From sequence record SRR20825010_2634: 50,085 nt of DNA. One strand, 5' to 3'. The position numbers were made by a program, and so were the translations under genes. Under the pieces are notes generated by a model that did no database searches, was not told the DNA's origin, and was given only the letters and a program-made list of their open reading frames with translations. Below, piece by piece: positions 2,420 to 45,733 of the stretch. Each line of letters begins with the position of its first letter. Position 1 is the stretch's first letter.

Positions 2420-4273
2420 CTAGCGAAGTGACGCAGGATCAGCGTCCGCATTCGAAAACGCGGCAGCTTCATTGCTGGCATGCTGCGAGCCTTGCAACAT
2501 TTCGTCAGTCAGATCCAACACCACGACCTGTTCCTCCACCGACAAATTGTCACGCGAACGAACAGTCAGACGAATCTGATATCGCCCGGCGTCGATTTCC
2601 GCAGGAAGATGAAATTGCAATTCGCGTTTCTGGCCGGGAGCCAACCAGCGGCCGAAGCCGTCCAACAACCGGTGAGGACGTGAACCATCGTCACGTCCCA
2701 ACAGCAATTCACCTTGGATCGGCGCGTAGCCTTCGCCTTCGTTGGCGACTTCAATCACGAACGCGTTCCCGTCGGTCAGGTTTGCCCACTGCAATGGTCC
2801 GGCCGCGACGGTCAATTGCGGCCGTTGTTGATGAACCAATTCAAGAGGCAATGAGGTTGCGGACTCAACGTCGTTTGGCGATTTGAGGTTCCGGCGAATG
2901 ATGTCCAACGTTCCCCACTGCGACGATTCTTTGGACACACCTCGCAGCAAGGCACGGATGGTTTTGGATCGACCGGCGTCCAATTCAAACTTGGTGCTCG
3001 ACAACATCAGACGACTCATCGGGTCGCCGAGATGATCGCGAGGAACCAAATGAATCAACTGGTCATCGTCGCTGTTGTTCTTCACTTCCAAAGTCACCAT
3101 TCGTTGTGTCCCTTCGACACGCCCCAGTTCGATCTGTGCTGGTTCCAATGTCACACCGGGGCCTAAGTTGGCGATGCGAGTGTCCAAAGCTCGAAAGGAA
3201 TTCACCAGCAACGTCTGTGGGAACGTCCGCTCCAACATCGTTCGACGGCCGTTGCTGACCATCAAATTCAAATCGTATCGTCCATCAATCAACGACGTCT
3301 CCAGCGGAGCCTCCAAACGCAGGCGAGCGTTGGGCATCATGCGGACCAAATACTTCTCGTCATCGTCCAGGTTGGCCCGCGAAGGCATGAACAATGCGAT
3401 CGGATCGGACGAGCGAGACTTCGATGCATTGGCGGATTCTTTGTGCGACAGCTCCGCTCGAACACGACACTCCAGTGCAAAGTTACTTGGGTTTTTGACG
3501 TAAGCGCGGATGTACGGCATGCCTTCGTGCGAGACGACTTGAGCGTCTTCGATTTCCATCTGCTCAATGCTGCTCAGGTTTGTCAGACCCGTTTCAACGT
3601 CCACGCGAAGAACATACTGCGTGACGTAGCGGATGGCGGCTCGCGTTTGACCTCCGATGGCATCGTCCTCCGTCGGTTCGTCGACCATTCCCTCATCGCG
3701 AACCAACAACCCAAACGACAAATAGTTTGTCTTCGCCAGCGGGATCGTCACCGTCCCCTTTAGTTCCACCGTTTCGCCCGCATTCAAGGTGAACCGGGTC
3801 GGAGTCGTGAACTTCACGCCTTCCATCGGCGGGCTGTGTTCATCATGCAAGATGATACCGGACTCCTCCTGTCGCAATTGAATCGGCGACACATCAATCT
3901 GCATCGTCTTGCCCGTCGATGTGACCGTGAACGAGAAAGGGATCACCTCTCCGCGGCGTCCCTTGAACCGTTGCACGACTGGCTCAATTCGAAACGCTTG
4001 TTCGACTCGTTGTTCGATGCTCACCCGACGACCGTCGCGAGCGTCGATGGCCCCCGTCCGAACTCCGGGTGTTTGAGCTTGTACAACATTCGACATCATC
4101 ATCGATGCCAAACAAGCAAGCATCCAAATTCGTACGCGACGGGAGCGAACACACGCTGGCGAAGCGTTGTCTCGTTCCGCGTTGTACTCAAGAGGCTGTT
4201 GAATGAAACGCATCGTTGGCTGGATAAGAGCAAGTGTTTTCATCGAAGAGGTTGTCCGAGAGAAGAGCGTCAA
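2420..4273 (-). CDS. Exported protein with four predicted Ig-like domains, resembling a tandem PapD/DUF916-type pilus chaperone
   Basis: Signal-like segment MLACLASMMMSNVVQA-Q. Duplicated modules FRIEP..FTLNAGETVEL / VTLEP..FELDAGRSKTI and YVKNPSN..GRYDLNL / EVANEGE..GRYQIRL. True start uncertain, likely downstream of 4273. Confidence 0.6.
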   Translation of the reverse strand: MTLFSRTTSSMKTLALIQPTMRFIQQPLEYNAERDNASPACVRSRRVRIWMLACLASMMMSNVVQAQTPGVRTGAIDARDGRRVSIEQRVEQAFRIEPVVQRFKGRRGEVIPFSFTVTSTGKTMQIDVSPIQLRQEESGIILHDEHSPPMEGVKFTTPTRFTLNAGETVELKGTVTIPLAKTNYLSFGLLVRDEGMVDEPTEDDAIGGQTRAAIRYVTQYVLRVDVETGLTNLSSIEQMEIEDAQVVSHEGMPYIRAYVKNPSNFALECRVRAELSHKESANASKSRSSDPIALFMPSRANLDDDEKYLVRMMPNARLRLEAPLETSLIDGRYDLNLMVSNGRRTMLERTFPQTLLVNSFRALDTRIANLGPGVTLEPAQIELGRVEGTQRMVTLEVKNNSDDDQLIHLVPRDHLGDPMSRLMLSSTKFELDAGRSKTIRALLRGVSKESSQWGTLDIIRRNLKSPNDVESATSLPLELVHQQRPQLTVAAGPLQWANLTDGNAFVIEVANEGEGYAPIQGELLLGRDDGSRPHRLLDGFGRWLAPGQKRELQFHLPAEIDAGRYQIRLTVRSRDNLSVEEQVVVLDLTDEMLQGSQHASNEAAAFSNADADPASLR

Positions 4274-4317: not shown

Positions 4318-5841
4318 TTATCCACCCGAGGTGATGAATGCGCTGCCGGTCGATCGAACGATTCTTGGTGAGATAAAAATCACCACTTCCGCGTCGCGCG
4401 TTTGCCGCTGGGTCGTTTGAAAAAGGTAGCCCACTCCGGGCAGTCGACTCAGTCCTGGAATGCGATTGACTCGATCGACCGTCTCTCTTTGGACCAATCC
4501 ACCAATGACAATGGTTTTGCCGTCTTTGACACTGACCGTTGTGGAAACACTTCGGCGGTTGATGATCGGGAACTGATTGATTGACAGAGCCGGGGTTGCA
4601 TTTCGAACATCCTCACTGACTTCCGCTTTCTCGATATCGATCGTCACTTCGTCACCACGTATGTGTGGTGTGATGTCCAACATGATTCCGGCATCGACCT
4701 TTTGAATGTTCTGTTGAAAGAAAACCGAGTTGTTGCCGGTCGATCCCGGTGGTTGCACACTGAAGAACGTTTCGCGATTGATCGCGATGTTGGCTTGCTC
4801 GCCATCCTTGGCCATCACGTGTGGTGTCGCGCGGATGGTCAAGTAGCCTTTTTCGGAAAGCAATCGAACGAACGCGGAAGTGTTTCCAAAATCAGAGAAG
4901 ATCGCATCCAAACCGGCTTGCGAAAGTTCACCGTTCAACGCCAAACCAGACGCGCTGAGAGAGAGTTCCTTGACGCCGTCCATCTCGACCGCGTGTTGCC
5001 AATCCAACCCAAACTGAAAACCAGAGTCCGGCGACACCACACAAATGATTGCTTCCAACACCACCTGCGGAATCGGTTGATCGATGTTTTGAAAACGTGA
5101 CACGATGTCGTTAGCGATTCGCGGTGGTGCTTCGACCAACATTGTTTTGGCTTGCTCGATCACCGTCACGTATTGCAACCAAGACTCAGGTACGGTTTCC
5201 AACAACGTGTTTGGATCCATGTGCAGAGGTTGATACTGGGTCTTGATCGACACCATCGCGAAAAGTGGCGAGGCGGGATCGGGCGGCGCGACAATCAATT
5301 GTTTGCCGCGGCGGGACGATGCCAATCCCAACGGCAGCAAGACCTTTTCAACCGCTTCATCGACGGTCAGATCATTGATTTGTGCGTTGACAATTCCGGC
5401 TACGTTGTCGTCCAACACCAAATCCAAGTTGGCGTCGGTGGCCAACAACGTCAGCACTTCGCGAACATCAGTCTCGATGAATTCCTCATTGATCAAGTAG
5501 TCCTCGTCGTAGTTGACGCGAGCGATCTGCGACGATCGAGCCTGCGAGATTGGGATCAGTTCCAATGGAATGATCTCTTCCTGAGGCGTTTGGCTGAATC
5601 CATCAATCGAATGTTCCTCTTCGATGATCACGGTGTCGCCGTGATCAACCATCACGCCGTCAACGACGACAGAGTGATCGTGAACGTTTCCGATCATTTC
5701 CGGATCGCCGCCAGTGGCCGCGTTGGACTGATCCAATGATTGCTGGATCAATTCATCGATGGAGGTTCGATGGTAATCTGGCCGGTAGGCACACCCCACC
5801 AACGAGAAGAAAAAGCAGATCAACCCCAGCATTCTTTTCAT
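4318..5841 (-). CDS. Secretin (GspD/PilQ superfamily), predicted lipoprotein
   Basis: DVREVLTLLA (N0/STN), IDQPIPQVVLEAII, ATPHVMAKDGEQANI, GIMLDITPHI, VKDGKTIVIGGL, IPGLSRLPGVGYLF, VIFISPRIV. Lipobox MKRMLGLICFFFSLVG-C from 5841. Confidence 0.9.
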   Translation of the reverse strand: MKRMLGLICFFFSLVGCAYRPDYHRTSIDELIQQSLDQSNAATGGDPEMIGNVHDHSVVVDGVMVDHGDTVIIEEEHSIDGFSQTPQEEIIPLELIPISQARSSQIARVNYDEDYLINEEFIETDVREVLTLLATDANLDLVLDDNVAGIVNAQINDLTVDEAVEKVLLPLGLASSRRGKQLIVAPPDPASPLFAMVSIKTQYQPLHMDPNTLLETVPESWLQYVTVIEQAKTMLVEAPPRIANDIVSRFQNIDQPIPQVVLEAIICVVSPDSGFQFGLDWQHAVEMDGVKELSLSASGLALNGELSQAGLDAIFSDFGNTSAFVRLLSEKGYLTIRATPHVMAKDGEQANIAINRETFFSVQPPGSTGNNSVFFQQNIQKVDAGIMLDITPHIRGDEVTIDIEKAEVSEDVRNATPALSINQFPIINRRSVSTTVSVKDGKTIVIGGLVQRETVDRVNRIPGLSRLPGVGYLFQTTQRQTRDAEVVIFISPRIVRSTGSAFITSGG

Positions 5842-6091
5842 TCGAATGCAGAGCATCCGAGGGATCGGCTTCGGGCAAATCAAAAACAGCAACGATGCAT
5901 CTCATGTGGGCAAAGAAGCGAAACGAGATGTTTCACTGATCGTTGCTGTTAGTGGTTGTACAGTTGTACGCCCACCCCGATTCCTGAAGCGGTTGCGATT
6001 TACCACCGTAAAAAGCGTCATCAAATCGATCGTTCACGATCGTGACTCGTGCCAGCGTTCAGTAGCGTTGGGGCGGGAAACTACTGAGCAT

Positions 6092-6132
6092 CAATGCAGA
6101 CGGCCCGTGATTTCTCACGGGCCGTCGCATTG
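6092..6132. promoter_or_regulatory. Strong intercistronic stem-loop between pilin-like gene and secretin
   Basis: CAATGC-A-GACGGCCCGTGA-TTTC-TCACGGGCCGTC-GCATTG: a 12-bp perfect stem extended by 6 bp, without a clear U-tract. Confidence 0.7.
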
Positions 6133-6310
6133 TCGAGTTGTTGATCAAAGAAGTGCCGCAATCAGTTCAACGGGGCACTGTTGAACCAGGGGCAAATCAT
6201 GCGGTTTTCCAGATCGCGGTGACGTGGGCAGGTCACCGCTTTCAACTCGTGGGGATGGAATGAGTTCGCGAAAAACGAATCATCCAGGGGGCATCGTTAC
6301 TGATGACGGA

Positions 6311-6832
6311 TCAAAGAGCCGTGATCGTACCCGTCACGGTTGTCTCGTAAGTTCCCGCGGCGAATGAGCCGAACGTGCCAGTGATGAACTCGACAGACAA
6401 GTCCAACGTTGCATTCGAGACACCGTCACTGACGGCGGAAACGGTTGCGATGTTGACCGAGTTGGCATAGTCCGTTTGGCCGGTGGCCTGCGAGATCGAG
6501 AACGATCCCGGACCGGTTTGGCTGTTGATGGACAATCCCAATTTCGCATCTCGTTTGAAGTTGGGATCAGCTGTGTTCACAAACGGACCATTCGTCGCGA
6601 AAGAAACGCTCACACCGTTTTGGCTGTTGCCAATCACGTTCCACGGTTGCGCCGTGAAGGTTTGGTTGGCGTGAGTTTCATCGTGAGTCAGGACCGCGTC
6701 GGCAGGAGCCGTCACGCTCATCGCGACCGATACGTTCGCGGTGAATTTTTGTGAGTCCGTTGTGTCGGCGAACAATGTCGAGACGGAACCAGCGGACAAA
6801 AGGGCAGTCAGGGCAAGGGCAATTTTTTTCAT
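6311..6832 (-). CDS. Exported 173-aa beta-rich protein, Csu/SCPU-like fimbrial subunit candidate
   Basis: Sec signal MKKIALALTALLSAGSVSTLFA, Thr/Ser/Ala/Gly-rich mature part, N-terminal alternating strand FTANVSV and C-terminal AAGTYETTVTGTI. Start at 6832. Confidence 0.65.
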   Translation of the reverse strand: MKKIALALTALLSAGSVSTLFADTTDSQKFTANVSVAMSVTAPADAVLTHDETHANQTFTAQPWNVIGNSQNGVSVSFATNGPFVNTADPNFKRDAKLGLSINSQTGPGSFSISQATGQTDYANSVNIATVSAVSDGVSNATLDLSVEFITGTFGSFAAGTYETTVTGTITAL

Positions 6833-7206
6833 CGGTTTAAAATCATTCTTGGAGCAAAGTGGGCAATCTAGGAGCATGTCAATTCGAATCGCGAATCCAG
6901 ACTTCCGTGGGCAACCCACCGTCATTCGAAACAAGTTTCTCATGTTGGCCGGGTGGGTTCGTTCCGAAGTCCGCCATTCGTTTTGACACCGAAACGTAAG
7001 CTGCGTTTTTGCGTTCGGTCGCGCGGACAAATCAATTTTCATTCTCTGGCGAATAAAAACCGTTTGAAAAGTTCAGGCTAGAACCTGCTCAATGTTCAGA
7101 CGCTCCGCAGATTGGTCTGGTCTTGAACGCTTTCGATGCACTATGGAAGAGGCAACACTTACAAAATTCACCTTGTGAGCACGTACCCGGCAGGGGAGTT
7201 ACCGCC

Positions 7207-8562
7207 GTGCAGACTTTGAAAACAGCCGCCATTGTCGTACTCATGACGACGGTCCTTTACGGGGCCTGGATTTCGATGACGACGCCGCCAGATGCATTGC
7301 CGCCTGAAGTGGCGCGGGACCTCATCGTGGACGCCGATACTTTTGATATCAGCGATGGGATTCCTGAAGCCTTAGGCTCCCTCGACCCCCTCTCGGAGTT
7401 CGGGATTGATGACGGAACGGCGGCGGGTGCAGACTCATACGCTCAATCCGATGTCGGACTGAACGATCCAGCAAACGGCGGGTTCGAAGACTTGGACTCG
7501 GCCCTCGATGGCCCCGACTTCGATGCCGGACTCGACGCACCATCCGATCCGATGTCGATGGATTCCGTCAATCGAAGCTTTGCCGATATCCCGTCGCAAC
7601 CAGCTTCGGCGACGGACAACTTGGGTACGGAATCAAGTTCGTTCTCAATGTCTGATTTGGATTCGCCCGCCGCTGATATGCAAGCAAGCCGTTTGCCTGA
7701 GGTGACGCCTGGTTCAAGCACACCGATTCAACTGAATCCAAACCAAGAATACACGTCGACCGGAGCGACCTACCAGTCGCCAGATCCGAACACCGCGATT
7801 GCGTCGGTGAAGCCGTCCAAACAATCGACACCCGATGTGGTTGCGACTGAATCCAATGCGATCGCTTCGGCCGGTTTGAGCAACGCGATTGCGACCGCCG
7901 ATCGGCAGTATCATTCCGATCGTCGACGAGAAGCATTGGCAACGCTCAGCCTGTTCTACGAAACACCCAATTTGACAAGCGAGCAACGCGACGAATTGCT
8001 CAGTCGTCTTGACCCATTGGCCGCCGAAGTCATTTATTCGGCCGAGCATTTGTTGGCAGAACCGCACCGCGTGGGTCCCAACGAAACACTGATGGACATC
8101 GCGAAAAAGTATGAAGTGCCGTGGCAATTGCTGGCCAATATCAACGGAGTTGATGATCCAGTCACAATTTTGCCGGGCACCGATTTGAAGGTCGTTCGCG
8201 GCCCATTTCGTGGCGACATTGATCTGAAGTACCAAGAACTGACTTTGTTCCTGGGTGACTTGTACGCCGGACGATTCAAGATTGCCGTTGGAAACGATCC
8301 GGCTCCTAAACCTGGTTCGTACACCATCCAAGAAAAGCAATCCGCGAAGACTTACTACGACATGTCAGGCACACCGATCCCGCCCGGCAACCCACGCAAC
8401 CCATACGGGTCGATGTGGATCGATTTGGGATCCGGTTTGAGCATCCACGGAAGTCCCGATGCGAACGCTCCGACCGACAAGGGCTGCATCAGCCTGGCCG
8501 GCAATTATTCGCGTGACGTGTTTGGCATTCTGTCCGAAGGATCGTCGGTCACGATCCGCTAG
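7207..8562 (+). CDS. Membrane-anchored LysM + YkuD L,D-transpeptidase family protein
   Basis: N-terminal TM, acidic low-complexity linker, LysM (HRVGPNETLMDIAKKYEVPWQLLANIN) and YkuD (IAVG..GSYTI..NPYGSMWI..SIHGS..KGCISL). GTG start at 7207 follows GGGGAG. Confidence 0.85.
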   Translation: MQTLKTAAIVVLMTTVLYGAWISMTTPPDALPPEVARDLIVDADTFDISDGIPEALGSLDPLSEFGIDDGTAAGADSYAQSDVGLNDPANGGFEDLDSALDGPDFDAGLDAPSDPMSMDSVNRSFADIPSQPASATDNLGTESSSFSMSDLDSPAADMQASRLPEVTPGSSTPIQLNPNQEYTSTGATYQSPDPNTAIASVKPSKQSTPDVVATESNAIASAGLSNAIATADRQYHSDRRREALATLSLFYETPNLTSEQRDELLSRLDPLAAEVIYSAEHLLAEPHRVGPNETLMDIAKKYEVPWQLLANINGVDDPVTILPGTDLKVVRGPFRGDIDLKYQELTLFLGDLYAGRFKIAVGNDPAPKPGSYTIQEKQSAKTYYDMSGTPIPPGNPRNPYGSMWIDLGSGLSIHGSPDANAPTDKGCISLAGNYSRDVFGILSEGSSVTIR

Positions 8563-8641: not shown

Positions 8642-9532
8642 CTACTTTTGCCGATTCAGCCGCATCAAAGCGGCGAGCTCGACCAAGTGGCGAAGCGAAT
8701 CGCAATGAGCTGTGTATCGCAATCGCGGTCGCAACTTGTCACACAGCGCTCGGCCACCGATTAGCAATGGGACATCTTCTCCCAACGAATCGGCCAACTG
8801 GTTTTGAGCCGCGACAAACATCCCCGGTTCGCTAACCGAGGAAACGCTCATCCAAACCATTTGCGGGTCGTAATCATGCGCCGCTTGGACAAAGCTTTCC
8901 ATGGGAAGGTCATTGCCGAGACTGGTCGCATTCCAACCAACTTCGCGAAGTGCCAATTCGACCAGCATCGTTGGCAACTGGTACGGATCCCCTTCGGGTG
9001 CACCGCCGATCGCGATCGGAGCGGACTTGGGGGGTGATGGGATCTCAGAACGCAACTCGTAGATCAATCGCATCGCGATGTCACATCCACGGCGTTCTTG
9101 ATAGACGTCCAGTTCGTTGCTGTCCCAAGCTTCACCGAAACCGTGCATGGCATCGGTGATCAATGACTCAGCCGCTTCGCTTCGCGTGTTTCCCGATGCG
9201 ATCTTCTGAGCCATCAACTTCCGACAGGCCGCTTCGTCGCCTTGGGCCAACGAATCGCGAAAATTTTGATTCAGTGGGTCTTCGTTTCCTTCTATGCGAG
9301 TCGTCCGATCCGGCGACAACTGAGGCAGACCCAACAACTCGGGCTTCAGCAAGCAGCGGTCGTTGGCGTGAACGAACGCCTGCAACGCGTCCAGAGTGAT
9401 CCGGCGATGGCCACCCGCTGTTTTGATGACCGGAATTGTGCCGTTGTCACACCATCTCTTCACCGACGACTCGCTGACCTCCATCGCCGCGGCGACTTCT
9501 TTCGGTGAAAACTGGGGCTGACGGGCTGCCAC
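8642..9532 (-). CDS. MerR-like HTH + B12-binding-domain regulator (CarH/LitR-like)
   Basis: FSPKEVAAAMEVSESSVKRWCDNG..KTAGGHRRI HTH, a helical cap with GEAW, and a Rossmann domain (LGNDLPMESF, VWMSVS, LLIGGRA). GTG start at 9532 preferred because the longer ORF runs through the operator repeats. Confidence 0.8.
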   Translation of the reverse strand: MAARQPQFSPKEVAAAMEVSESSVKRWCDNGTIPVIKTAGGHRRITLDALQAFVHANDRCLLKPELLGLPQLSPDRTTRIEGNEDPLNQNFRDSLAQGDEAACRKLMAQKIASGNTRSEAAESLITDAMHGFGEAWDSNELDVYQERRGCDIAMRLIYELRSEIPSPPKSAPIAIGGAPEGDPYQLPTMLVELALREVGWNATSLGNDLPMESFVQAAHDYDPQMVWMSVSSVSEPGMFVAAQNQLADSLGEDVPLLIGGRALCDKLRPRLRYTAHCDSLRHLVELAALMRLNRQK

Positions 9533-9564
9533 GAGACACGCTGGGATGAGAGAGAAGAACGAAG

Positions 9565-9817
9565 TGAACGTTTTGCAGGACAAGGTGAACGTTTTAAACA
9601 CCTCAGTTGAACGTTTCCAGTGTAATCGGCTGACAATGGTGGACGTTTATCGCTCATTACTCGCTCGAGCAGTGAACGATTTCCGATCGTTTCGCCGCGA
9701 TCTTCGACTTTGCAAATACAAGGAATTCTTTATTCGACGGGAATTTCGCTTGCATTCGGTTTTGCAGGCCGATATACCAATGGACGTTCTGAACGTTTTT
9801 GAAGCCCAAAACGTTCA
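9565..9817. promoter_or_regulatory. Array of TG(A/G)ACG(T/A)T boxes, candidate operators
   Basis: Copies at 9565, 9586, 9608, 9640, 9673, 9781 and 9790, plus an inverted copy at 9808. Perfect inverted repeat TGAACGTTTT-N8-AAAACGTTCA at 9790-9817. Confidence 0.75.
9750..9778 (+). promoter_or_regulatory. Candidate sigma70-type promoter of the sigma-factor operon
   Basis: TTGCAT-N17-TATACC immediately upstream of the 9781-9817 boxes. Confidence 0.45.
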
Positions 9818-36628: not shown

Positions 36629-37711
36629 TCAGGCTGCGGTTGCTTGCGGAACTTTCTTACCTTGCATTTGATAGACGTAACGCAAGATTTCCGCCACCGC
36701 TTGGTACTGCTCCGCCGGGACTTCTTGTCCCACGTCGACCAATTTGTACAACGCCTGGGCCAGCTCTTTTCGCTCCACCACAGGAATGCCATTTTCCAGT
36801 GCCAAGCGTCGAATGCGCTGGGCGATCATGCCCGCGCCTTTTGCCACCACGATCGGAGCCGGCATCGTCAACGGATCGTACTTGATCGCAATCGCAAGTT
36901 CGGTCGGGTTGCTGGCCACCACATCGGCTTTGGGAACTTCGGATCCGAGTTGTCCCATCGCCAATTGGCGTGCAACCTGACGCCGACGAGCCGCCACCTG
37001 CGGGTCGGCCTCGGTGTCTTTCATTTCGTCACGAACTTCCTGGTCCGTCATCATCAAGTCTTGTTCCGTTTTCCACCACTGATACACGTATTCGAGCAGT
37101 GCCAACACAAACAAACCGACGCCGATCCACAACGACACACCAAACAAGGTGTCAAACATCGACTTGGCCAATTGTGGCACCGACAACGAAGCCATCGAGA
37201 TCACATCACCGTGGTGAGCCCGAAGTGCTAAGTACGCGATCCCGCCGATGATGCCGACTTTGAACATTCCGAACACCAATCGCATCACGCCTTGAAGCGA
37301 CAGAATTCGCTTGGCCCCAGACATTGGGCTGATGTTGCTCAACTTTGGCATCAACTTGTCGGTCGAAAGCAACAATCCAGACTGAAACACGTTGATCAAC
37401 ACGCCACCGATGAACATCAGGATCATCATCGGCACGGCTGCCATCGCCAATCGTTGCGAGATTTGCAACATGTACTGCGTGGCATCTTGATTGGTCATCG
37501 GTGCAAGCTTCGTTTCGCCGAGGGCCTGTTCAATGCCTCCTGACAAATAGGCCGCCATGTTTCCACCGATGGCGTAAAGAGCTCCGATCGCGGCCAGCAG
37601 CAGAGTCGCAGATGTCAGGTCCTGGCTTTTCGCGATCTGGCCTTTTTCGCGAGCCTGCCTGCGTTTGCGTTCTGACGCTGAGTGTTTCTTATCTCCACCG
37701 GAATCAGACAT
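36629..37711 (-). CDS. flhB: Flagellar export switch protein FlhB
   Basis: AREKGQIAKSQDL, LMMTDQEVRDEMKDTEADP, NPT and APIVVAKG. Confidence 0.95.
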   Translation of the reverse strand: MSDSGGDKKHSASERKRRQAREKGQIAKSQDLTSATLLLAAIGALYAIGGNMAAYLSGGIEQALGETKLAPMTNQDATQYMLQISQRLAMAAVPMMILMFIGGVLINVFQSGLLLSTDKLMPKLSNISPMSGAKRILSLQGVMRLVFGMFKVGIIGGIAYLALRAHHGDVISMASLSVPQLAKSMFDTLFGVSLWIGVGLFVLALLEYVYQWWKTEQDLMMTDQEVRDEMKDTEADPQVAARRRQVARQLAMGQLGSEVPKADVVASNPTELAIAIKYDPLTMPAPIVVAKGAGMIAQRIRRLALENGIPVVERKELAQALYKLVDVGQEVPAEQYQAVAEILRYVYQMQGKKVPQATAA

Positions 37712-41645: not shown

Positions 41646-42308
41646 TCAAACCAAGATTTGGTTCAGCTCGTCGTTGATGGCACGAGCGGAGCGGAGATTT
41701 TGGAAGACACATCCGCATTCGCAGCGATCATCCTCGGTGCGTCGAAGCCAAATCACCGTCACAGTGCCGCTGACGCCCGATGGGGTGCTGATCAACAATC
41801 GCTCGGACGGATCGACTTGTCCGAGCAATGTGATTCGCATTCCCGACGCCGAGCAATCTTCTAGAACGACATCGTTGACTTCTGATTTGCCGTGTGCCCG
41901 ACGGACTTGAACAGGCATTCCAACCTGCATCCGTTCTTCTTCCCGGCGCGTGATCAAGCCTTCGTCCACCATCTGATCGATCAAATCCAAATCGATAGGG
42001 CGGCGGAAACGGAATCCGAAGGTGTTCGATCCCACCGACGTTTGCTGATTCCAACAAAGCCGGCCGGCCACTTCCAGTTCGATCCCCAGCGTCGGTGCAT
42101 TGATTCGAAGCACGGCGATGGTGACGTTGGAATCCTCACCCAACTTGGCCCGAATCGCGCAACCACCTTGGCTCAGGTCAGCTAACTGACAATCGTATTC
42201 CTTCACTATGTCGTCGCGAAGAATCACCACGACAGCCTTCAAACGGTCACGATGCTTCGCATAAAAACGATCGCTCGTTCGGTTTTGGCCGTTCACGTCA
42301 CGCGTCAT
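41646..42308 (-). CDS. Tandem PilZ-domain protein
   Basis: RTSDR..DLSQGG and REEER..DCSASG motif pairs. Confidence 0.8.
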   Translation of the reverse strand: MTRDVNGQNRTSDRFYAKHRDRLKAVVVILRDDIVKEYDCQLADLSQGGCAIRAKLGEDSNVTIAVLRINAPTLGIELEVAGRLCWNQQTSVGSNTFGFRFRRPIDLDLIDQMVDEGLITRREEERMQVGMPVQVRRAHGKSEVNDVVLEDCSASGMRITLLGQVDPSERLLISTPSGVSGTVTVIWLRRTEDDRCECGCVFQNLRSARAINDELNQILV

Positions 42309-42540: not shown

Positions 42541-44394
42541 ATGTTGCGTCCCCACCGCCATTCAGTTGCCTCTGCCAGTTGCCGTGCCCGCGGTCGGCAG
42601 CGACGGCGATTTCGGATGCTCATGATCTTCGGTTTGGTACCGCTGACGTTGCTGGCTCAACCCTCGTTTGCACAAACGACTCGGACCAATCAATTCGTCA
42701 CCGGAACTTCGGATGCCACCGAGATCACCGCGGCCCCCGGTGTCGCCACCGCTCGGCTGATGCTGCCCCAATCGAGCTCGACGATCGTCAAACAGCCCAC
42801 CTCGCAAGCCCCGCCTGAATGGTCGACGCCGCTCGCCGCGTCCCATGATGCAGAACCGGCCGGATTCTCGGGACAGATCCCGGTCGGCCCTCATCAAAAC
42901 AGCTTTGAATCGTTTCAACCCGTTGCGGTCGGCGAAGAACCTCAACCGACCGAGGCCCCTCGCATCGCGATGCGTCCGCAAGAACGGACCAACGATACGC
43001 TCCGCACGCCTCGTCAAAGCCAGCCGAACAAGCCCGCTGCAGGTGCGAGACCTCAACGTTTGCCGATGGCTGAACCATCACCACAAACCACGACGGAAAT
43101 CGCCGCGTCCAAATCCACCGCTCAACGATTTGCCGAAGTGATCGCCGAGCGGCGTGCAACGGAACAAGCCAAATCGCCCGTCACACCACCGGCCGCCGCA
43201 TCGGGCATGTTCCTGGCGACTCAAACAGCCAAGTCAAAACTCGATCAAGCTTGGAAGCATTTTCAACAAGCCGAGCTGGAATACAGTTCCGCGGCTTACG
43301 CATCGGCTGAAACATCTGCTTGGCAAACGTTGCACTTGGCCGCCGAAGCGATCGATCTACACGAACAACACACCCGTTCGCGCACCGCAATCGAATCAGG
43401 ACAGGCCGTCGCGGCGGCTCCTTCGCGTTCGGCCGTTCGACATTTGCAATCCGGTCGAGACGCACTCAACGAAGCACAAGATTTCGTCGGCCCGTACGCC
43501 ACGGACGATCCCGAATCGATCGCACGTTTGGCTCGATCGCACCGCACTCCTGTCGTCCGACAAGGTCTCCCACGTCGCGGCCGAGCGGCATCGGCTTCGC
43601 ATCCCGATTATCAATCCGCTCCCAAAGATGAGCTTGGTTGGTACACCGAGATGCAGGTCGAAAGCACCGATGGTGCAACGCAATCGATTCCAACCGCCAA
43701 CGAGGCCATCGATCGCTACCTTGATTTGGCTCGGATGGAACTCAGCGAAGTCGCGGCTCAAAGCTTACTCGCCGCACAAGCCATGGATTTGCTCGCAGCG
43801 ATTCGACTCGGTCGAGGTGAAGCCACCCAATTGCCTGGACCTTCCGCCATTTGCCTGAGACGAGCGGCTGTGCAAGGTCAAAGCAACAACCCGGACTTGG
43901 TTGCCAAACTTGGGTATCACTTGGCTGATGTTGGTTTGATCGAAGAAGCCACCTGGGCGTTGCAACATTCACTGACGCTTCGATACGACGTCCACGTTCT
44001 GCAAAAGCTTAACCAAATCGAATCCTTGTCGCCCGCCGCCACCACGGTCTTGAAGGGTGCTCCGATTCGGTCGCAAGCACAAACTCGACGCACACCCGAC
44101 GTGGTCACGATGTCGCCTGAACAATTCGCATCAGTCTCGCGCAGCATCATCCCAGCACAAACCGGCGACGCACAAAACAACACTGGATCGGTGAACGCGA
44201 AGAACGTTTCGACAAACTTACCCGTTCACACTCAACCGGCCAGCTACCGCTTGATGAACACTCCGCCCGCAACGGCGGCGTTGGGACAATCACTCGCTGT
44301 CCCTGAATCGAATTCGAATGAGACGCCTGAGCCAACTCAACAACCGACTCGAAACAGTTCACGTTTCTTGCCTCAACTCAAAAAGTGGTGGTAA
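42541..44394 (+). CDS. Hypothetical exported protein with helical/TPR-like region
   Basis: Signal peptide ending SFA-Q, Pro-rich linker and a TPR-like segment (NPDLVAKLGYHLADVGLIEEATWALQHSL). Ends 4 bp before the Wza-like gene. Confidence 0.7.
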   Translation: MLRPHRHSVASASCRARGRQRRRFRMLMIFGLVPLTLLAQPSFAQTTRTNQFVTGTSDATEITAAPGVATARLMLPQSSSTIVKQPTSQAPPEWSTPLAASHDAEPAGFSGQIPVGPHQNSFESFQPVAVGEEPQPTEAPRIAMRPQERTNDTLRTPRQSQPNKPAAGARPQRLPMAEPSPQTTTEIAASKSTAQRFAEVIAERRATEQAKSPVTPPAAASGMFLATQTAKSKLDQAWKHFQQAELEYSSAAYASAETSAWQTLHLAAEAIDLHEQHTRSRTAIESGQAVAAAPSRSAVRHLQSGRDALNEAQDFVGPYATDDPESIARLARSHRTPVVRQGLPRRGRAASASHPDYQSAPKDELGWYTEMQVESTDGATQSIPTANEAIDRYLDLARMELSEVAAQSLLAAQAMDLLAAIRLGRGEATQLPGPSAICLRRAAVQGQSNNPDLVAKLGYHLADVGLIEEATWALQHSLTLRYDVHVLQKLNQIESLSPAATTVLKGAPIRSQAQTRRTPDVVTMSPEQFASVSRSIIPAQTGDAQNNTGSVNAKNVSTNLPVHTQPASYRLMNTPPATAALGQSLAVPESNSNETPEPTQQPTRNSSRFLPQLKKWW

Positions 44395-44398
44395 GACC

Positions 44399-45733
44399 AT
44401 GCGATTGATTTCTCGTCTCTCATCGATCTGTCCGCAATCGATCAATATCATTGCCGCTCTCGTCGTGATTGGGCTTTGTTTATTGCAAGTCCAAACCGCA
44501 AATGCGCAATTGAGATCGGGTCAGCTGTTACCGGCCTCCGATTCGCAACGTGTTCCCGTTCCGTCGCACACGGTCAACACACATTCAAACGTCGCGCACG
44601 CACCAGCCTGGAATGGTCCAGGTTCGCAAAGTGCATGTGGGCCATGCGGATCGTGTGGAACGCACATGGTTTTGACCGCCGAAGGTTACGGTTGCCCCAA
44701 ATGCATGCTGGGCGTTGACTGTGCAACCGCCTGCGGCAGCGAAGCTCGTTGGCAGGACATGAAGCCAATGGACTTCGACAAATACGGACCGGGCGGCTAC
44801 ACCGGTCCAGCCCGGATGCGACATCTGGCGAAATACCATGTTCGTCCCGGCGATCAGCTTCAAATGGTTTACTTGGTCACTCGTCGACAAGACGCGGGTC
44901 AGTATCGTCTCATGCCCGGCGACCAAGTCTCGATTGAATCCATCGCCGATGAAGACTTGGATCGCGGGACCCTGGAAAGCGGCTTGTTGATTCAACCCGA
45001 TGGTTCGATCACGGTGCGTTTGCTCGGGCAAGTCCAAGCGGCCGGACTGACGGTGCCGGGTCTGCGAGACTTATTGGAACGCGAATACAAAGCGTTTTAC
45101 GATGATCCGGCAATCGACGTCACGCCCGTTCGCACCAATACATTGGCAGAAGACATCCGCGCCGCTGTCGGTGGACTCGGTGGGTTCACCGCGCAAGCCA
45201 TCACGACGACGGTCATGCCCGACGGTCACGTTCGATTGCCAGGCATCGGCCAAGTCAGCGTGCAAGGGTTCACTCTGGAACAACTCAAACGCGAAATCAA
45301 TTTGCGATACGCGGAAGTTGTGGTCGGACTGGAAGTCGAACCGATCCTGACACAACAAGCACCACACTTCGTTTATGTGCTCGGACAAGTCGGACTGCCT
45401 GGACGTCAAGAGATCACCACGCCGACGACCGTGCTCGGTGCCATCGCAGCCTCGGGTGGTCACCTGCCCGATGGCAACCTACGTCAGGTCATCGTGTTCC
45501 GGCGTGCGGAAGATTGGCGAATGATCAGCACCATGCTGGACCTCAACGGAGCGATCCGCGGGAAACGCCCGACCCCTGCCGATGAAATTTGGGTTCGCGA
45601 TGGCGACGTGATCGTCATCCCCGATCGCCCGATCACCGTGTTCGGCGACTTCGTCCGCCAAGTCTTCACCGAAGGCGTCTACGGCATCGTTCCCTTCGGC
45701 GGATTCTCATTCACCAGTGACACAGCGAACTAG
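44399..45733 (+). CDS. Polysaccharide export protein (Wza/OPX family)
   Basis: YRLMPGDQVSI, IQPDGSITVRLLGQVQAAGLT, VMPDGHVRLPGIG, VYVLGQVGLPG and VRDGDVIVIP. Start at 44399. Confidence 0.88.
   Translation: MRLISRLSSICPQSINIIAALVVIGLCLLQVQTANAQLRSGQLLPASDSQRVPVPSHTVNTHSNVAHAPAWNGPGSQSACGPCGSCGTHMVLTAEGYGCPKCMLGVDCATACGSEARWQDMKPMDFDKYGPGGYTGPARMRHLAKYHVRPGDQLQMVYLVTRRQDAGQYRLMPGDQVSIESIADEDLDRGTLESGLLIQPDGSITVRLLGQVQAAGLTVPGLRDLLEREYKAFYDDPAIDVTPVRTNTLAEDIRAAVGGLGGFTAQAITTTVMPDGHVRLPGIGQVSVQGFTLEQLKREINLRYAEVVVGLEVEPILTQQAPHFVYVLGQVGLPGRQEITTPTTVLGAIAASGGHLPDGNLRQVIVFRRAEDWRMISTMLDLNGAIRGKRPTPADEIWVRDGDVIVIPDRPITVFGDFVRQVFTEGVYGIVPFGGFSFTSDTAN

Follow-up and report, generated by a model that had tools for sequence, protein, structure and literature searches.

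A tandem chaperone-like protein encoded beside a pilin-like gene and a secretin in Planctomycetota suggests a way of making adhesive fibres without an usher

Fibres whose subunits are linked by donor-strand exchange are known to be built with an usher, in the chaperone-usher pili of Gram-negative bacteria, or without a chaperone, as for the TasA-type and archaeal fibres. They are also made with a membrane-anchored chaperone and a sortase in the WxL/Elr pilus, as told in the accessible part of a preprint (10.64898/2026.10.17.759780). In that part, ElrE (DUF916/DUF3324) is a chaperone which primes WxL pilins by donor-strand complementation and whose fold resembles those of CsuC, CfaA, Caf1M and EcpB. 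According to the same part, the WxL pilus system is confined to Bacillota by Pfam gathering thresholds, its chaperones are disjoint in sequence from the PapD-type chaperones and 96.7 % of them possess a C-terminal transmembrane helix. The two-domain WxLIP is also described in the accessible part of PMC10599100; its domains are named WxLIP_PGBD (DUF916, PF06030) and WxLIP_HBD (DUF3324, PF11797), with structures under PDB entries 9i1y and 9i25. Here we analyse, by computation, ORF617, a Rhodopirellula protein and the product of an open reading frame on the minus strand (2420-4273) of a stretch of 50,085 nucleotides from sequence record SRR20825010_2634, the whole of which is called the window below. 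ORF617 is made of two chaperone-like units in tandem, and its gene stands beside a pilin-like gene and a secretin gene, with no usher gene, which suggests an undescribed way of making adhesive fibres. In the reading that we favour, with a confidence only slightly better than even, ORF617 is a soluble periplasmic tandem chaperone of a module composed of subunit, lipoprotein secretin and chaperone, which would build fibres via the secretin.

An earlier note on this DNA, made from the sequence alone, had proposed that the protein is a head-to-tail duplication of a two-domain unit and had placed it at 2420-4080, a range which corresponds to the mature part of ORF617. The duplication is borne out at the level of profiles and structure. 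From the N-terminus and all on the minus strand, the domains are D1 (module A, residues 85-232, 3578-4021), D2 (module B, residues 233-365, 3179-3577), D3 (module A', residues 366-492, 2798-3178) and D4 (module B', residues 493-600, 2474-2797). They are followed by a polar tail which, with the stop codon, covers 2420-2473 (residues 601-617) and which is unconserved and without membrane anchor in the alignment. When residues 85-365 were compared with residues 366-600 by HHalign, using 123 diverse homologues, 217 columns of the two halves aligned colinearly, with a probability of 97.5 % (E 7e-12, score 83.2) and with 14 % identity in these columns. As controls, the reversed C-half scored 13.5 and 15 block-shuffled C-halves scored 14.4-24.3. 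With the same homologues, the like domain pairs gave P 2e-6 (D1-D3) and P 4e-9 (D2-D4), against P 0.0024-0.078 for the four unlike pairs; with only 42 homologues the signal was weak (D1-D3 P 7e-5, D2-D4 P 1e-3, D1-D4 P 5e-4). The motif pairs noticed earlier fall in the same columns as those paired by the alignment of the two halves, namely AFRIEP/GVTLEP, FSFTVTS/LEVKNNS and FTLNAGETVEL/FELDAGRSKTI for the first domains and YVKNPSN/IEVANEGE, MPNARLRL/LAPGQKREL and GRYDLNL/GRYQIRL for the second. A pairwise BLASTP of residues 67-375 against 376-617 detected no significant repeat, the best match (E 0.064) being out of register. Because this comparison is null and the identity is 14 %, with a clear HHalign result, the duplication is old and visible only at the profile and structure level.

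A distant homologue of 552 amino acids, from genome G299, bridges the two halves of ORF617. Indeed, its N-half matches the N-half profile of the family (96.0 %, P 4e-9) and the C-half profile equally well (96.2 %, P 2e-9), and the C-half positions of the family hidden Markov model match both of its halves (independent E-values 1.4e-6 and 2.5e-12). Its own two halves are still recognized by BLASTP (E 0.008). As for relatives of half size, only three fragments were found, on contigs of 1.3-2.7 kb, and the C-half profile run over 401 Planctomycetota genomes retrieved only the same five genomes as the tandem protein, so that no single-unit relative was seen at this sensitivity.

The mature protein (534 residues) was modelled by AlphaFold2 with 123 sequences, which gave four beta-sandwich domains with a mean predicted local distance difference test (pLDDT) of 92.9 and a predicted TM-score (pTM) of 0.88; residue i of the model is residue i + 66 of ORF617. 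Structural similarity to pilus chaperones, which the earlier note had anticipated, was found by two methods. Foldseek against PDB retrieved, after immunoglobulin (Ig)-like arrays that are discussed below, the WxLIP of Enterococcus faecium (9i1y_B, E 3.7e-10, TM-score 0.43 on the target), the WxLIP bound to a WxL protein (9i25_C, E 8.8e-10, TM-score 0.50) and FimC (4dwh_C, E 5.5e-8, TM-score 0.47). With VIA-align, which set the two halves apart, model residues 305-520, which correspond to the C-half, were matched over both domains by SfaE (13.6), CsuC (13.2), FimC (13.2), PapD (12.7), Caf1M (12.6) and EcpB (12.1, root-mean-square deviation (rmsd) 4.2), and further by YadV, CfaA, SafB, CupB2, DraB and FaeE. 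Among the 50 rows listed, 45 are chaperones (2 WxLIP and 43 PapD-type), each covering both domains of a unit, the chaperone chains within complexes being assigned by chain length and residue range. The model thus shows a chaperone fold in both halves.

We also compared the halves with a profile of 13 E. coli K-12 chaperones (11 PapD_N-positive genes plus ecpB and ecpE). The C-half matched it over both domains (HHalign, 90.2 %, P 1.5e-6, 157 columns), while reversed controls stayed at P > 0.03; on the same scale, EcpB/EcpE match the 11 classical chaperones with 78.3 %. D3, which is of the PapD_N/ASH type, matches domain 1 of the E. coli chaperones (88.1 %, P 3e-6), and D4 matches the second domain of PapD-type chaperones. 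In this alignment of profiles, which is no residue-level superposition, the '..KLFyRP' stretch of the chaperones' G1 strand faces a gap in the C-half and the A1 strand is unaligned. The N-half has no similarity to the PapD-type profile (P 0.045). D1 gave no significant match with the E. coli chaperones by local or global profile alignment, and a single profile merged from the two halves matched the chaperones no better (90.3 %). When profiles of whole ORF617, the N-half and the C-half were run against PDB sequences, only chance matches such as ribosomal L15 were obtained.

In Pfam, ORF617 has sub-threshold matches to Ig-like families only, including WxLIP_HBD on residues 306-345 of D2 (E 0.0019, 18.6 bits against a cut-off of 28.9). 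Among the 123 members, the sub-threshold matches keep a consistent order: WxLIP_HBD falls on D2 or D4, and Cep192_D3/D6, ASH, FixG_C and fn3_5 recur on D3. Sub-threshold WxLIP_PGBD was found in one member, on D3, and in the G299 variant, on D1, where it covers profile positions 24-119 of 121 (E 0.0011, 19.5 bits against a cut-off of 27.3). Over the genomes that carry the system, Pfam DUF4402, PapD_N and WxLIP_PGBD had no match at these loci, including WxLIP_PGBD in genome G001.

Conservation is unevenly distributed. The columns conserved at 90 % or more number 12 in D1, 3 in D2, 3 in D3 and 6 in D4. D1, the most conserved domain, carries RRGEVIPF and LRQEESGII, and its residues R102, R107 and R223 are invariant in an alignment of 42 sequences. 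Its long hairpin ends in the amphipathic strand AIRYVTQYVLRVDVE, a candidate donor (G1-like) strand, and D2 has an invariant NPT motif (N261, P262, T263). Since D1 is far more conserved than D3, the C-half has a gap at '..KLFyRP' and the N-half is without PapD-type profile similarity, the two halves are not equivalent.

ORF617 counts 617 amino acids from the first TTG at 4273, the coordinates including the stop codon, and its start is uncertain, with further in-frame ATG codons at 4243, 4213 and 4123. On inspection of the sequence, a hydrophobic stretch is followed by AQA-type residues (MLACLASMMMSNVVQAQ, residues 51-66, 4076-4123 on the minus strand), which looks like the hydrophobic core and cleavage region of a signal peptide. 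Among database records, RBSH_03061 of Rhodopirellula baltica SH28, a hypothetical protein, is nearest (identity of 100 % over 556 amino acids), and relatives are named 'COG1470 family protein' at most. A HMMER search of 1.84 billion cluster representatives returned 156 clusters at E <= 0.001, nearly all of 500-600 amino acids and aligned end to end; NCBIfam holds no family for ORF617. A signal-like hydrophobic stretch is present within the first 70 residues of 114 of the 123 members, and 121 have no transmembrane-like hydrophobic window of 19 residues past residue 70, the two exceptions being marginal and internal. ORF617 is therefore taken as soluble, like the PapD-type chaperones. The same scan of the 123 members found no transmembrane anchor at any C-terminus.

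The genes next to ORF617 are conserved. In a set of 34 loci from Pirellulaceae and other Planctomycetota, the usual order, on one strand, is subunit, secretin and tandem chaperone. The secretin gene lies directly upstream of the tandem gene in 33 of them, a remnant being present in L027 (L004 begins inside the secretin gene), and tblastn found the subunit in 27, while the copy in L021 is divergent. Where the phylum was sampled evenly, all four strong cases have the subunit within 3 kb of the tandem gene. The order in G299 is subunit, tandem chaperone, secretin and then a small lipoprotein; the trio thus survives rearrangement, as all three genes are kept there in another order. In addition, the genes flanking the trio vary among loci. 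Four system-carrying genomes were searched with the Pfam Usher model and none matched; likewise, none of the four has PapD_N above cut-off. The earlier note had supposed that a double chaperone could hold two subunits and so make up for the two chaperone-binding sites of an usher. This interpretation is supported in part: the genomic context, with a pilin-fold subunit and a secretin as conserved neighbours and no usher, fits an usher-less pilus pathway.

The subunit gene (6311-6832, minus strand) encodes 173 amino acids, with a signal peptide, from the ATG at 6832, the longest open reading frame running to 7042. It was modelled with confidence (pLDDT 90.2) as an all-beta protein, and about 35 of the 47 Foldseek rows listed are donor-strand pilins or fibres, including CfaB (E 2.5e-4), CS17, archaeal bundling pili, FimF/G, Caf1, CanA, CupE, SafA and CooA. 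The fold of the subunit, as modelled, is pilin-like. The N-terminal strand of the mature protein is conserved (consensus SQKFTVxVPxxISITAP) and, because the aligned fold cores begin at residue 33-40, it lies outside the core; the C-terminal strand, AAGxYETTVTGTVTAN, forms the very C-terminus. A glycine occupies position -14 from the C-terminus in 31 of 33 subunit homologues and likewise in all 13 E. coli K-12 pilin open reading frames. NCBIfam has no family for the subunit. Its language-model neighbours include clusters named WxL, SCPU and DUF4402, at 0.93-0.96, which is a lead only; the label 'DUF4402-like' was not adopted, Pfam DUF4402 being without match at these loci.

Subunit paralogues are present in eight loci. 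The second one stands right after the tandem gene in seven, while L006 has two upstream. The second paralogues just downstream of the tandem gene (L011, L012, L013, L016, L017, L019, L030) are of a type of their own, 25-36 % identical to the main subunit, with C-termini in ..C/S-T-I-x-x-P and often with Cys; R. baltica does not have one. They may serve as minor subunits, as tip subunits or as terminators.

The secretin gene (4318-5892, minus strand) encodes 524 amino acids from the first TTG, with a lipobox (FFSLVGC), an STN/N0-type domain at residues 157-203 and the secretin domain at residues 345-513. Against Pfam, the protein matches Secretin (2.2e-42) and STN (1.7e-5, below the STN cut-off). 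It stays below the cut-offs of all NCBIfam secretin subfamilies, so that no curated subfamily fits, and the closest solved structures are GspD and PilQ (E 1e-22). In the G299 locus (L055), a protein of 140 amino acids with a lipobox (AVTGC) and no Pfam match is encoded directly after the secretin gene (5458-5880, minus strand) and is possibly a pilotin. In R. baltica, it is instead the secretin itself that bears a lipobox.

How does this module compare with the described ones? With WxLIP/ElrE, ORF617 shares the two-domain PGBD-HBD fold; it differs by falling below the Pfam gathering thresholds for both modules, by its tandem duplication and by having no C-terminal transmembrane helix, unlike 96.7 % of WxL chaperones in the accessible part of the preprint. 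Its host is a diderm planctomycete, its gene stands beside a secretin gene with no sortase anchor and the neighbouring subunit is not a Pfam WxL domain. The survey in that part of the preprint used Pfam cut-offs which the ORF617 family fails, and the strings 'secretin', 'Planctomyc' and 'diderm' do not occur in the preprint (10.64898/2026.10.17.759780). Like the PapD-type chaperones (FimC, PapD, SfaE, Caf1M, CsuC, CfaA, EcpB), ORF617 has two Ig-like domains with chaperone topology per unit, but two units lie in one chain and the locus has a secretin gene instead of an usher gene. Pfam PapD_N (PF00345) has no match on ORF617 and matches 2 of 42 members (best E 0.0057). In PapD, a conserved basic pair of the cleft, Arg8 and Lys112, anchors the C-terminus of the subunit. 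Finally, type II secretion, type IV/Tad pili and filamentous phage export also use a secretin with an N0/STN-type domain, of which GspD and PilQ are nearest to that of the window, whereas comparison of the loci found that the conserved module has neither an ATPase gene nor one for a platform or a type IV pilin, the cargo resembles a donor-strand pilin and the secretin of the window is placed in none of the NCBIfam subfamilies.

According to the reading that we favour, the 173-residue subunit would be taken across the inner membrane by Sec, its Ig-like fold being incomplete. A chaperone unit of ORF617 would capture it and complete the fold with a donor strand; the capturing unit would most likely be the conserved N-terminal, WxLIP-like one, via the long D1 hairpin ending in AIRYVTQYVLRVDVE. 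Subunits would then be joined by donor-strand exchange via their conserved N-terminal strand, and the product would exit through the dedicated secretin in place of an usher. In a bolder version, which we hold only tentatively, one unit of the tandem chaperone would keep the base of the growing fibre while the other took up the incoming subunit. The protein would thus do the catalytic job of the usher in the periplasm, with the secretin as pore, a third route through the outer membrane, and the family would also be a missing link showing that WxLIP and PapD-type chaperones share an ancestor. Since the nearest relatives are WxLIP for one half and the PapD-type chaperones for the other, and the halves are homologous, their homology would argue for such a common origin and bears on the shared ancestry of the two chaperone families.

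Several results weigh against the favoured reading. Three loci (L003, L005, L009) have the secretin and the chaperone with another gene upstream in place of the subunit, and the tandem protein is rare, with 5 of 401 genomes in the even sample of Planctomycetota. No curated family model of Pfam or NCBIfam reaches its cut-off on ORF617, none of the 33 subunit homologues has a Pfam match, WxL included, and the subunit profile gave no significant match with E. coli type 1 pilins (P 0.012) or with EcpA (P 0.33). To these can be added the N-half, without likeness to the PapD-type profile, and the high rmsd over whole units (4-7 Å), from which it follows that inter-domain angles differ from those of known chaperones. 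The chaperone-like fold seen in the model also exists in non-chaperones, and the fold alone is no proof of function. This last point leads to an alternative which we regard as improbable, namely that the secretin exports ORF617 itself, as cargo or as a surface protein (Ig-array adhesin or fibre-associated protein), the fold of ORF617 being merely the common ASH/PapD-like Ig fold. The top Foldseek matches are indeed not chaperones but eukaryotic ciliary central-pair ASH/PapD-like Ig arrays (E 4e-16 to 1e-11), the Pfam matches are weak and to many Ig families, and the relatives bear only the COG1470 name. However, these array matches have rmsd values of 20-60 Å and TM-scores of 0.04-0.28, whereas chaperones account for 45 of the 50 listed rows that cover a unit, each of them over its two domains. 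Moreover, the conservation of D1 resembles that of a binding or catalytic core, and with unconserved ends and no pilin-type C-terminus ORF617 has no evident way into a fibre.

It is also conceivable, if rather unlikely, that the labour is divided, the conserved N-half alone acting as chaperone and the other unit, having lost this role, docking the complex on the periplasmic N0/STN domain of the secretin or serving as scaffold; ORF617 would then be a chaperone-adaptor rather than a holder of two subunits. The uneven conservation of the four domains speaks for this, as does the C-half, without a stretch aligned to the '..KLFyRP' part of G1, and as does the secretin-chaperone pair, which is the tightest of the module (33 of 34 loci) even without an adjacent subunit. 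PilP and GspC have beta-sandwich domains which bind the N0 domains of secretins, and the pTM of 0.88 points, as far as the model goes, to a rigid four-domain body. Still another explanation, to which we give little credence, is that the module secretes a small monomeric or oligomeric protein and makes no fibre, the tandem protein being a holdase or a pilot for the cargo or for secretin assembly. Against it stand the conserved amphipathic N-terminal strand of the subunit outside the aligned core (ranges starting at 33-40), its C-terminal strand with Gly-14, as usual in donor-strand pilins, the paralogues in eight loci, as with major and minor pilins, and the richness of the listed subunit matches in donor-strand fibres.

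If the reading of ORF617 as a tandem chaperone in a secretin module is true, it adds a chaperone-plus-secretin route for donor-strand-exchange fibres, with the first tandem chaperone, and it provides a WxLIP-like chaperone outside Bacillota, where the Pfam-threshold survey in the accessible part of the preprint found none. For one kind of planctomycete surface fibre, a concrete set of genes would also be at hand. In the accessible parts of the literature on usher-independent, PapD-like or planctomycete fibres, we found no description of a chaperone-plus-secretin donor-strand system. The idea that the module makes the universal crateriform fibres of planctomycetes was dropped, since only 5 of the 401 sampled genomes carry it.

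The intergenic region between the subunit and secretin genes (5893-6310, minus strand) is strongly structured as RNA. The fold of 6100-6320 on the minus strand reaches -79.9 kcal/mol (z -4.64), with none of 200 shuffles as stable, and the spacer holds a perfect G+C-rich hairpin of 11 bp at 6100-6125. A contig of 862 nt from a marine RNA library, of a related strain, covers only 6137-6968, the subunit gene, and its edge at 6137 falls just before this hairpin. A second marine RNA-library contig (1410 nt), again of a related strain, lies over ORF617 (two runs). Their depths, 171 for the first and 7.6 for the second, do not rank the genes, and DNA may be present. No cover was observed over the secretin gene, from which we draw no conclusion. 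The contigs hint that the locus occurs in the sea and may be expressed, and the first gives a weak hint of a separate subunit transcript. The spacer may act as an attenuator or processing site which keeps the subunit in large excess over the machinery. A scan for promoters and terminators gave nothing above chance.

On the other side of the subunit gene, and divergent from it, a gene at 7123-8562 (plus strand) encodes a LysM and YkuD (L,D-transpeptidase) protein whose N-terminal region is long, acidic and of low complexity; it adjoins the module only in close relatives (L001, L002, L007). Two genes from the module, at 8642-9601 (minus strand), is a gene for an HTH_17 protein with B12-binding domains, of the type of regulator that senses light or cobalamin; this gene neighbours the module only in the nearest relative, L001. 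Elsewhere in the window, and with no conserved link to the module, genes for other envelope functions encode an FlhB-type export gate (36629-37711, minus strand), a PilZ-domain protein (41646-42308, minus strand) and a Poly_export/SLBB polysaccharide exporter (44318-45733, plus strand).

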